Positions 741-63,287 of a stretch of DNA of 64,000 nt are shown piece by piece. A model generated the notes under the pieces. That model had not been told where the DNA came from and did not search any database. It worked only from the letters and a program-made list of their open reading frames with translations. Within the stretch, counting starts at the first letter, position 1; the number at the start of each line of letters is the position of its first letter. The translations under genes were made by a program, and so were the position numbers. Source of the DNA: Octopus vulgaris (taxonomy: Eukaryota); contig OX597828.1 in the NCBI GenBank assembly GCA_951406725.2, positions 74,338,001 through 74,402,000 of the forward strand. Reading direction: 5' to 3'.

Positions 741-56614
<55,874 letters not shown>

Positions 56615-58342: not shown

Positions 58343-58764
58343 ATAACGTAAGGGGGATCAGCCATCTGAATGTGGCTAGGGACAGGGCGGGGTGGTGGGG
58401 GTGTTACTGATGCATTTAGCCCCAGGCGATCATCGACGTCACCAGAAGGACCGACACCATCACGGTGTCCTTGCTAGCCTGTAAAAGGAGATCAGCCTCC
58501 CCGAAGATACGGATACTACATACGGACCGGTTTCGAGGTAATTGCCTCTTATCAACGTACGGTAAGCACTGTTCCTCGATGAAGGATTCTCTCTACAGGC
58601 TACATATATAAGGATTCTCCCTTTACAGGCTAGCAAGGACACCGTGATGGTGTCGGTCCTTCTGGTGATGTCGATGATCGTCTGGGGCTAAATGCATCAG
58701 TAACACCCCCACCACCCCGCCCTGTCCCTAGCCACATTCAGATGGCTGATCCCCCTTACGTTAT
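58343..58764. mobile_element. Inverted-repeat element (about 148-bp arms) with a central hammerhead; Penelope pseudo-LTR-like
   Basis: Arms 58343-58490 and 58617-58764 are near-perfect reverse complements; the element is GC-rich in an AT-rich context. Confidence 0.8.
58519..58561 (-). ncRNA. Minimal hammerhead with U3-A8 core variant
   Basis: CGTACG TTGATAA GAGG CAATTA CCTC GAAA CCGG TC CGTATG; GUC cleavage triplet. Confidence 0.8.
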
Positions 58765-59933: not shown

Positions 59934-59966
<33 letters not shown>

Positions 59967-59967
<1 letters not shown>

Positions 59968-60281
59968 GGAGATGTACTCGCATAGCAAGTGATTTGATCT
60001 GAGATCGTGTGCTGAAACAAAAACAATTGCAACGTGGACGGTGTTTGTAAGCCATTTAAGAAACACACAAAAGCCGTTCGATTCACATTTAACATTCAAC
60101 ATTTAAGTTTAATTTGTCAAAATATTTTCGTCGCTAAAATCCGCAAGCACGGATTTTTGTCAGTGAACAGGTCGCAGATTTTAGCGACGAAAATATTTTG
60201 ACAAATTAAACTTAAATGTTGAAGTGAATCGAACGGTTTTTGTGTGTTTCTTAAATGGCTTATAAACACCTTCCATGCTGC

Positions 60282-60285
<4 letters not shown>
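59967..60285. mobile_element. Inverted-repeat element with hammerhead, inserted in (TA)n
   Basis: Arms about 60025-60141 and 60177-60285; flanked by TA microsatellites. Confidence 0.75.
60156..60205 (+). ncRNA. Minimal hammerhead with G3-C8 core variant
   Basis: TTTGTCA GTGAACA G GTCGC..GCGAC GAAA ATAT TT TGACAAA. Confidence 0.72.
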
Positions 60286-60324
<39 letters not shown>

Positions 60325-60327
<3 letters not shown>

Positions 60328-61185
60328 GGCACAGTGAATATAATGTCATCTAAATCATGCTAAAATGAAATAACTTTTGATATCTCATTTTAACAGATAT
60401 ATTTACCAAAATTACATAAAAATATCTTGAAATACTAAAGAGTAAATTTATTCAATAAAATCCGACTTCAGAATCTTCTTCAAATTGTCTGGACGCTCTC
60501 TTTGTTTAAGTTGGTGAATGCTGCCATAATCCTTGCCTTCAGTTTATCTAGGGTGTTACAAAGAGTTTTGTTGGTCTCTCGCTCAACTGCACCCCACACA
60601 TAATAATTAAGAGGGTTGCAGTCTGGGGAGTTAGGAGGCCAGATGTTAGGGGTGATGTGGTTGCAGAAATTGTCTGACAGCCATGACTGGGTTCTCCTGC
60701 TTGTGTGGCATAGTGCAGAGTCCTGTTGCCAGACATAGGGTCTTCCAGCAGTCAACCTCTTGACCCAGTGCAACACTACCTCCTCCAAGCACTTGATGTA
60801 GGACTTTGTGTTGAACCTGAGTCCATGTGGGAAGGTGAATAAAGGCATAACATCACCATCACTAGCAGTCATTCCAAACACCATGATGTTGACTGGATGT
60901 TTGATTTTTATCACTCTCAGTACATGTTTTGGGGGCACAGCAAGCCAATGATTGTTCTGTGTTCACCATCTGTTCATATTGAAGCTTCCGGCACAAATGC
61001 CAAGCAGTATGGCATGTTGTTTCCAAATTTCTAGCTAAGTGAATTGTGTAATGGTGCTGTTTTTCTCTCACAGACAGTGCCCAACTGACCCTACTATACT
61101 GTGTAGTCGACAAAATCAAAAACAAACAATGCACATGCATGAAATTAAAAATATAAAATGGCAACAATTTACTCCTCACACCCTG
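60325..61185 (-). mobile_element. Internally deleted maT (DD37D) transposon
   Basis: CAGGG..CCCTG ends with TA; ORF 60480-60938 contains WQQDSA..(37 aa)..SPDCNPL(N)YYVW. Confidence 0.88.
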
Positions 61186-61227
61186 TATATACATATATAT
61201 ACATATATATAAATATATATATATGTA

Positions 61228-61715
61228 TGTATATTGGCAGGGCTGGCCTGCTAGGTAGCCGGCCAGAATGCTAGAAGAAGATCATCAACGATCAAACGAT
61301 CGAGATGCAAACCGCAAGACTAACCCTAGTCTAACTTGGGGTTAGTCTTGCGGTTTGCATCTCGAGGACCGAATGTACTGATGAAGTCACGGACACTTGA
61401 ATTATGCAAGTAATTCTTTTGTTAAGACCGAAACCGAGGTATACATTTAAGTCTGTTTTTTATTTAATTTTTCATATGTCCTGCCCGCCAAAGTTGGTTC
61501 TGGTGTTCGCTGAATTCTTCCTCTAGAGAATTTCCCTTGTAGTTTGATCGTTGATGATCTTCTTCTAGCATTCTGGCCGGCTACCTAGCAGGCCAGCCCT
61601 GCCAATATACAAATATATTTGAATTTTCTCTGACTCCTCAGATTTTTTGAATGCTGGACTACTGGTTTTAAATTGATATTAAAATTAATATTAATTTATC
61701 TCCCTCAATTTTTAA
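61228..61715. mobile_element. Doubly inverted-repeat element with hammerhead
   Basis: Perfect 70-bp arms 61228-61297 and 61542-61611, plus an inner 27-bp inverted repeat 61300-61326 / 61339-61365. Confidence 0.75.
61371..61448 (+). ncRNA. Minimal type I hammerhead ribozyme
   Basis: GAATGTA CTGATGA A GTC..(long loop)..GAC C GAAA CCGAGG TA TACATTT; GUA triplet. Confidence 0.75.
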
Positions 61716-62037: not shown

Positions 62038-63287
62038 CCAAATCACTGATCGCGGATCCTGGGTGGATGTTGTTTACCTGGACTTTGCTAAGGCTTTTAA
62101 CTCTGTGCCACACAAAAGACTTATGGTGAAGCTTTCTGCGTTGGGTGTAAGAGACGAACTCTTATAACTGGTTAAAGTCCTTTATTTTCGGCCGAAAAGA
62201 GGTTGTCACAGTTCTAGGACAGCACTCTTCGCCCTATGAGATGACATCTGGTGTGCCGCAGGGATCTGTTCTTGGCCCCCTTTTATTTGTTGCATATGTT
62301 AATGACATAGATGCCAACTTAAAGAATGCCACAGTGCTGAAATATGCAGATGACATCAAGCTGTACCTCGAAATAAAGAGGTCAAATCCTGTACACTATG
62401 GATCTCTATTGCAAGCAGACCTGGACACAATGCAGCAGTGGATCATGGACTGGCAACTCAAGCTGGCTGTGGACAAATGTACCACCATGCAGGAGAAACC
62501 CAGCGTCCATGAGAGGAGAAACCCAGCGTCCACCTACTCCCTCCACAACACTAGTCTCAAAAAGTCTTCAAGTGAACGTGACCTGGGTGTTATTGTCGAC
62601 AGCGATTTGCGTTGGACAAAACACATCGCTAAAATTGTCAAGAAGGCTGAGGGCGTCTTGGCATCACTCACCAAATCCTTTGTGAGCCGCTCTCCAGCTA
62701 TCTATCTGCGGCTTTATATAGCTATGGTAAGACCTCACCTGGAGTTTGCATCGCCGGTCTGGAGCCCCTATCTTGCCCAGGACATCAATCGTCTGGAAGC
62801 TGTTCAGCGACGTGCAACCAAAAGAATACCCTCCATCAGGCATTTGCCATATCCTGAACGCCTTACCTCCCTGGGCATGGACACATTGAAACTCCGACGT
62901 CTGGCAGCTGACTTGGCAGACACCCATAAAATTATCAACCATCGCACAAACAATAACTCTGAGCACCTCTTCAAACTCCACCCATCTAACACCCGTGGAC
63001 ATATTTACAAAGTAAGGAAACAGCACAGCTCCCATGACTTCAGGAAACATTTTTTCACGCTGAGAGTTGCTGAAGTGTGGAACAAACTGCCGACATCGGT
63101 TGTTAGTTGTCGGAGCACTGCTTCCTTCAAGACTTCCATGCTTCCTGAGATTCGCCAACACTACACTTGATTTTCTTCCCTCCATACACCCAGACATTTC
63201 TACACTACTGCATGTACTTTATATGCACTTTCTGACAAGTTGTGGTGCACCTGAGCACTGTATACAATAATTTCATTATATTATTAT
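62038..63287 (+). mobile_element. 5'-truncated CR1-clade LINE (RT domain, C-terminus, 3'UTR, ATT-rich tail)
   Basis: VDVVYLDFAKAF, SGVPQGSVLGPLLF, YADD, RPHLEFASPVWSPY, VQRRATK, TRGH, FF.LRV..VWNKLP; frame disruption near 62165. Confidence 0.93.

Follow-up and report, generated by a model that had tools for sequence, protein, structure and literature searches.

Natural G3-C8 hammerhead motif in an Octopus vulgaris hairpin that probably arose as a head-to-head pseudo-LTR insertion of a Penelope-like retrotransposon

In the hammerhead ribozyme, G8 positions the general acid. Natural covariation of the 3-8 pair is in print as U3-A8 (PMC3088659, PMC4209133); for G3-C8, the published cases found in the literature consulted are engineered, and Lunse et al. 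2017, on hammerhead variants of Penelope-like elements (PLEs), may report a natural one. An engineered C3G/G8C double mutant partly restores cleavage in a PLE hammerhead (PMC11167929), a G3-C8 hammerhead is described, as data not shown, as more active with G17 than with C17 (PMC3884650), and the minimal hammerheads of metazoan PLEs are reported to cleave poorly even as dimers (PMC4209133). The protein of a related element, Poseidon PAc of Anolis, cuts and extends both strands in vitro, initiates reverse transcription internally, at a pair of sites that set the limits of the tail, and prefers unprocessed RNA (PMC11167929). Self-priming on an antisense template has been proposed for the Penelope palindromes of A. 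vaga (PMC3846280). Both the architecture and the minimal hammerhead type of the octopus locus described below are already known.

We analyzed a 64,000-nt window of the Octopus vulgaris genome. Direct reading of the window found the hairpin sequence at 59967-60285 and within it the motif that an earlier note on this DNA had quoted, TTTGTCA GTGAACA...TGACAAA with a swapped G3-C8 pair (Table 1). Three helices surround the core in type I order, helix III consisting of the AATATT palindrome only, and the core carries U4 G5 A6, A9, G12 A13 A14, the A15.1-U16.1 pair and H17. The literal C3-G8 consensus is absent; a Watson-Crick 3-8 pair is retained as G3-C8. Rfam returned no match to this hammerhead at the gathering score or at E<=10, a null result of little weight because the three C3-G8/U3-A8 motifs of the window were also missed at the gathering score.

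Table 1. Positions of the hairpin and its hammerhead motif within the window; offsets in the last column are relative to G3.
Feature	Position	Strand	Details
(TA)n target, left flank	59939..59966		
Inverted pLTR arm with tail (site-B arm)	59965..60144	-	+11 to +182
Unpaired tail of about 60 nt	59965..60024	-	corresponds in antisense to codons ~11-30 of the parent RT-GIY-YIG ORF
Tail-less direct pLTR arm (site-A arm)	60146..60285	+	-17 to +122
Minimal type I hammerhead	60156-60205	+	core with G3-C8; 7-bp stem I, 5-bp stem II, U17
Stem I	60156-60162/60199-60205	+	7 bp
Core G3 U4 G5 A6 A7 C8 A9 (GUGAACA)	60163-60169	+	
Extra G at 9.1	60170	+	between core and stem II
Stem II	60171-60175/60184-60188	+	5 bp
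GAAA	60189-60192	+	
Palindromic helix III, AATATT	60192-60197	+	
U17	60198	+	UUU triplet
Predicted cleavage site	60198/60199 (after U17)	+	from hammerhead numbering on the sequence
Start of the parent ORF (ATG, first 10 codons)	60255..60285	+	
(TA)n target, right flank	60286..60325		

A descriptor scan of the window located hammerheads with C3-G8 at 51774 (+) and 51750 (-), with U3-A8 at 58555 (-) and with G3-C8 at 60163 (+). At a descriptor score of at least 11 and with a Watson-Crick 3-8 pair, there were three matches in the window against one in total across ten dinucleotide-shuffled windows. The three kinds of 3-8 pairing that the earlier note had offered as evidence of covariation all exist, but they belong to separate families and support that argument only in part. 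The two C3-G8 motifs, one minimal hammerhead per strand, form a head-to-head pair at about 51600-51910 that is flanked by TA runs, and the U3-A8 motif sits in the loop of a second inverted PLE-type stub (58343-58764), whose 149-nt arms are 98% complementary. An inverted repeat at 61212-61627 has 86-nt arms and an internal hairpin, and within it CTGATGA...GAAA near 61390, with a long stem II, is possibly an extended hammerhead from another family. Judged by eye, 62151-63170 (+) is a LINE-type RT fragment of 339 aa, and a frame at 60480-60962 (-) resembles a Tc1/mariner transposase fragment.

The hairpin motif resides in the pseudo-LTR (pLTR) of a Penelope-like retrotransposon with an RT, a GIY-YIG domain and a Neptune-like linker. 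No PLE ORF lies inside the window; upstream of the hammerhead, longer copies carry a 3' UTR rich in (CATA)n and, before it, an ORF with a terminal GIY-YIG domain, and the pLTR repeat lies about 1 kb past the stop of this RT-GIY-YIG ORF, on the same strand as the hammerhead. The longest parent frame analyzed (1025 aa, 5'-truncated) matches PF01541 (GIY-YIG, E=1.8e-5). Its RT domain was unmatched by Pfam; RT motifs such as YVDD are recognizable by eye, and homologues of the ORF are labelled RT-domain or GIY-YIG-domain proteins, the best named match (57% identity) being labelled Octopus vulgaris. By its linker the parent is probably Neptune-like: the parent translations show, by eye, CX3CX2C before GIY-YIG, and a CX2-5CxxC linker in this place is described for Neptune and, as a shared trait, for Nematis (PMC8557442). 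We found a single ORF with RT and C-terminal GIY-YIG, a pLTR hammerhead that flanks the ORF and includes its first codons, and an inverted 5'-truncated copy with a one-sided tail and a short duplication, the duplication being shown in other copies; these are the features of an EN+ PLE. The parent ATG lies 92 nt after G3 (window position 60255), and in three copies the hammerhead and tail continue into the ORF start. Because the repeat continues in this way, the overhang of the hairpin can be identified as PLE tail.

Within the hairpin, the inverted arm is trimmed at its 5' end inside stem II, so that its own catalytic core is missing, and the direct arm misses the presumed start of transcription by 6 nt. 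The target-site duplication of this copy is unresolvable inside the TA runs. The arms pair at 60025-60086/60224-60285 (62 nt) and 60095-60144/60174-60223 (50 nt), the left arm carrying an 8-nt insertion. The hairpin proposed in the earlier note is therefore real, at 112 rather than 115 bp, but the ribozyme does not sit whole at its apex: only the 5' half is in the loop, and the 3' half is in the stem. Folded without the left arm, stems I and II form with a probability of 0.66-1.0; folded as the whole element (MFE -175.9 kcal/mol), their probability is 0.0. This bears out, as a prediction for the window copy, the proposal that the arm sequesters the ribozyme, and in a read-through RNA of this copy the ribozyme would, by the same prediction, be taken up in duplex and inactive. 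MFE cofolding of two copies, a method that is uninformative for tertiary folds, did not yield the geometry of a hammerhead dimer.

The swapped pair is not peculiar to this copy. The 319-nt element gave 2248 first-look candidates in the 2.8-Gb genome, 40 of which were scored, and GTGAACA was the core in 30 of the 30 best copies. A genome-wide search for the core that allowed any base at positions 3, 7 and 8 and required an exact match elsewhere found 7079 exact matches and none with a reversed-pattern control. G3-C8 was present in 6460 of them and an unpaired G3-G8 in 224; 19 were altered at both 3 and 8, and C3-G8 occurred in none. U17 was carried by 6531 of 6565 copies. The check that had been suggested, a consensus of genomic copies, thus upheld the GTGAACA core: G3-C8 and the UUU triplet are the family consensus and not decay of the window copy, UUU being common to the sister family as well.

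Twelve G3-G8 copies were inspected, 11 with the older loop type and one truncated, and two listed loci have G3-G8 on both arms, which suggests a template-level variant. Copies of this kind, including the two both-arm loci, imply that a paired core is dispensable for some mobilization. The G3-G8 cores of loci L250-L261, mostly of the older subfamily, may mark a transitional state linking C3-G8 with G3-C8, or a dead template that was mobilized in trans. Short tandem arrays of tail-less pLTRs also occur (L098:3660-4240; L246, L248), with units of about 142-159 nt, (TA)n spacers and a G3 core per unit; such arrays could permit ribozyme dimers in cis.

A sister family (L218, L219, L226) shares 59% identity over the RT query, and the N-termini of the two ORFs match at 35% over 187 aa (E=2e-35). 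At the homologous site the sister family carries C3-G8, likewise with U17, and a non-consensus C9 in place of A9. Between the two families the 3-8 pair, stem I and stem II have all changed in compensating pairs. This is better evidence for covariation than the three pairings in the window, but the sister is also C9 and the comparison is a single one. The sister PLE is very young (L219:1772-5698, L218 and L226), and its frames are 1312 aa long and contain an insert rich in Asn; a donor-like GTAAGT lies about 20 nt upstream of its hammerhead, and its copies terminate at the counterpart of the site-B codon.

We consider it likely, with a probability of roughly 0.75, that the hairpin is a head-to-head pLTR insertion in a TA microsatellite, copied from capped, uncleaved RNA at both target ends, and that its G3-C8 motif is a predicted ribozyme of the whole family. 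Transcription would start at A(-23) and the RNA would be capped; the endonuclease would cut both strands 8-12 nt apart in AT-rich DNA, and each target 3' end would prime reverse transcription internally, one at a site A and one at a site B. Both cDNAs would traverse the uncut hammerhead towards the cap, to be trimmed and then joined head to head. Cleavage by the parent ribozyme, if any, might proceed in a dimer formed via the AATATT palindrome and be slow or protein-assisted.

Evidence for this reading comes from a survey of the first 80 distinct places on one contig by position, in which a near-exact core was required in one arm. By design this excludes pairs whose two arms both begin at the cut site, and solos that begin there, and cut-site starts are testable in partner arms only. 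The 80 places comprise 44 inverted pairs, 32 solo copies and 4 others. Eight of the inverted pairs are one older insertion that was multiplied within a larger repeat, with common flanks of more than 1.3 kb that are 92-96% identical; seven were dropped, leaving 37 independent inverted copies. Given these flanks around eight identical junctions, the palindrome was rejected as a self-replicating unit. Copies end at two fixed points, A at about +122 (codon ~10) and B at about +183 (codon ~30), and the arms of the 37 independent copies combine them as A+B in 32, B+B in one and A+A in none, the remaining four having one broken end; in the pooled set A+B accounts for 84 of 92. Among the 20 copies that are not TA-embedded on both sides, 15 are bordered by target duplications of at least 8 nt (shuffled mean 1.4), and 17 of the 37 independent copies are embedded in TA on both sides.

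The 5' ends cluster as well. In 38 of the 44 pairs the longer arm begins at -30..-14, as do 19 of the 32 solos, the other 13 extending upstream, and the resulting pile-up precedes the cut site by about 59 nt (-23 vs +36). A start near +36 is seen in only 2 of the 44 shorter arms. Arms that stop at A(-23) are often preceded by G: 27 of 39 non-C cases have it at -24 (background 22%), as do 9 of the 12 cases that are joined to unrelated flank, neither partner arm nor element; the element's own base there is C or T, and some of these G's may be attributable to microhomology with the partner arm or the target. An extra G is a mark of cap copying in full-length L1 insertions (PMC11702581). The pile-up at -23, the extra G and the scarcity of cut-site starts together point to a capped and uncut template. 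The -23 region also resembles a splice acceptor: in three copies a branch-point-like ACTAAC and a pyrimidine tract are followed by an AG that ends exactly at the 5'-end hot spot. Splicing of a short exon 1 is a less likely cause of the pile-up, as the upstream letters vary among the 12 flank-joined cases. Four presumed-RNA contig sets, queried with a long copy, cover the ribozyme region and contain opposite-strand joints, such contigs being blind to strand, starts, cleavage and level; none of the joints listed in them is a splice into the acceptor-like site at -21.

Whether the hammerhead still works is a separate matter. Its intact core, the compensating changes against the sister family and the partial activity of the engineered C3G/G8C hammerhead (PMC11167929) lead us to favor, by a modest degree, a ribozyme that is active in a dimer or assisted format. 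The view of U17 as compensation for G3 is unsupported as a cause, the C3-G8 sister family also having U17. A somewhat less probable reading is that the G3-C8 motif is a dead or near-dead relic, kept as a structure (protein-binding or promoter/leader) or hitchhiking; it concerns activity only and is compatible with the insertion model. The apparently uncut templates would fit such a relic, as would the 224 G3-G8 copies with the older loop type in 11 of the 12 inspected, the C9 of the sister family, the poor cleavage of minimal metazoan PLE hammerheads (PMC4209133) and the merely partial rescue by the C3G/G8C double mutant (PMC11167929). It sits less well with the compensating changes at 3-8, stem I and stem II, with the consensus state of the other core positions (98-100% conserved in 265 arms, which were partly selected on the core), and with the seven regions around young ORF-bearing copies, where all 12 scored hammerheads are G3-C8. 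More tentatively, the two questions may be joined: an active natural G3-C8 hammerhead may have arisen from a C3-G8 ancestor in a Neptune-like lineage, possibly via G3-G8, with the stubs recording integration and the ribozyme acting outside template production. A dimeric RT would then prime both target strands at two internal sites on capped RNA that had not been cleaved, in some cases with a different RNA for each strand, and the ribozyme might, for example, destroy or uncap RNA that is not used.

An unlikely alternative to priming at both target ends is snap-back self-priming, in which one copy folds back and is itself copied. It would account for the near-perfect palindromic junctions of the 8 of 32 A+B copies whose 5' ends fall within 5 nt of each other, and for the variants that the arms usually share: minor variants are shared 92 times against 40 in shuffled pairs, and at site +100 the arms agree in 61 of 69 pairs, three more pairs having a gap or another base. 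Against it, 18 of the 32 A+B copies have arms that are not nested, the tail-less one reaching further 5' while the tail is on the other (the tailed arm is longer in 6), and the window copy is of this non-nested kind (-17..+122 and +11..+182). An asymmetric deletion at the center could rescue snap-back here, but not in the 4 of 62 classifiable pairs whose arms differ in the multi-base loop type of stem II. The non-nested arms and the few differing loop types therefore fit double-end priming better, although center deletions could mimic non-nesting. A separate RNA template for each arm is rejected as a rule, as the arms mostly agree; we infer that priming at both ends probably took place mostly on one RNA or on RNAs of one source. 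Mostly shared arm variants would also be expected from snap-back copying or later homogenization, which counts against our preferred explanation.

The earlier note's further suggestion, that the inverted upstream arm could be a built-in off state, taken here as a selected feature of a non-autonomous hairpin element, is very improbable: sequestration is predicted to be full in the window copy and the cut site is covered in 27 of the 37 independent inverted copies (16 partner arms span the entire ribozyme and 11 include the cut site but only part of the ribozyme, the other 10 missing it), but 32 of the 80 copies are solo, every independent junction is different, the sole repeated junction (eight copies) rides in a larger repeat with common flanks, there is no hint of a route to switching on, and the layout is the published Penelope one of inverted pLTR plus tail, generic for PLEs including ones without canonical hammerheads (PMC8557442). 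With the arm optional and variable, no built-in switch is indicated, and insertion probably left the mirror arm behind as a by-product.

The hairpin layout itself is ordinary for the PLE class, and the window copy is one of thousands of mirror-image stubs. The value of the family lies elsewhere. More than 6,000 natural copies with a swapped core, together with a C3-G8 sister and a G3-G8 minority, form a test set for the plasticity of the hammerhead core, and the same copies let one ask whether PLEs need cleavage at all. The A+B asymmetry, the non-nested arms, the cap-like G and the few cut-site starts provide in-genome support for a model of internal initiation, use of both strands and an uncleaved template; this model previously came from a single in vitro study, and the end statistics weigh against the older self-priming model.

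Among known systems, non-LTR retrozymes (bioRxiv 10.64898/2026.07.22.740005) are likewise non-coding, hammerhead-bearing and related to PLE pLTRs, but they are described as tandem units each with a hammerhead, whereas the window copy lacks tandem complete hammerhead units and consists of one inverted stub whose sequence is co-linear with that of an autonomous element. Pen2a_Av (PMC3846280; Craig et al. 2021, PMC8557442) shares the head-to-head inverted, 5'-truncated pLTR with a tail on one arm, and with EN+ PLEs it shares a pLTR that holds the first ORF codons, a duplication of ~9-10 bp and TA targets (PMC3846280, PMC8557442); the tail is ~60 nt in octopus and 30-40 nt there (PMC3846280, PMC8557442), most octopus copies are pLTR-only, and the end statistics favor double priming here whereas self-priming was proposed there (PMC3846280). 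The hammerheads reported from metazoan PLEs (Cervera and de la Pena 2014, PMC4209133) resemble the octopus motif in being of type I with an extra nucleotide between 9 and 10.1 and G10.1-C11.1, in their tiny palindromic helix III, in their location in the pLTR and in the common occurrence of U17 (Fig. S3). They differ in that the rows consulted in that figure have C3 or U3, with no G3 among them, whereas the octopus family has G3-C8, and in that stem I is usually 4-5 bp there and 7 bp here. The natural U3-A8 hammerheads (Perreault et al. 2011, PMC3088659) also show natural 3-8 covariation, but keep a pyrimidine at 3 and a purine at 8, which the octopus family swaps. In PAc (Frangieh et al. 2024, PMC11167929), two internal RT starts at the 5' end of the ORF bound the tail, both strands are cut and extended, and unprocessed RNA is used, features that the end statistics suggest for octopus too; in PAc, G3-C8 was engineered and partly active and the ORF starts inside the ribozyme, whereas in octopus G3-C8 is natural and the ATG follows downstream of the ribozyme.
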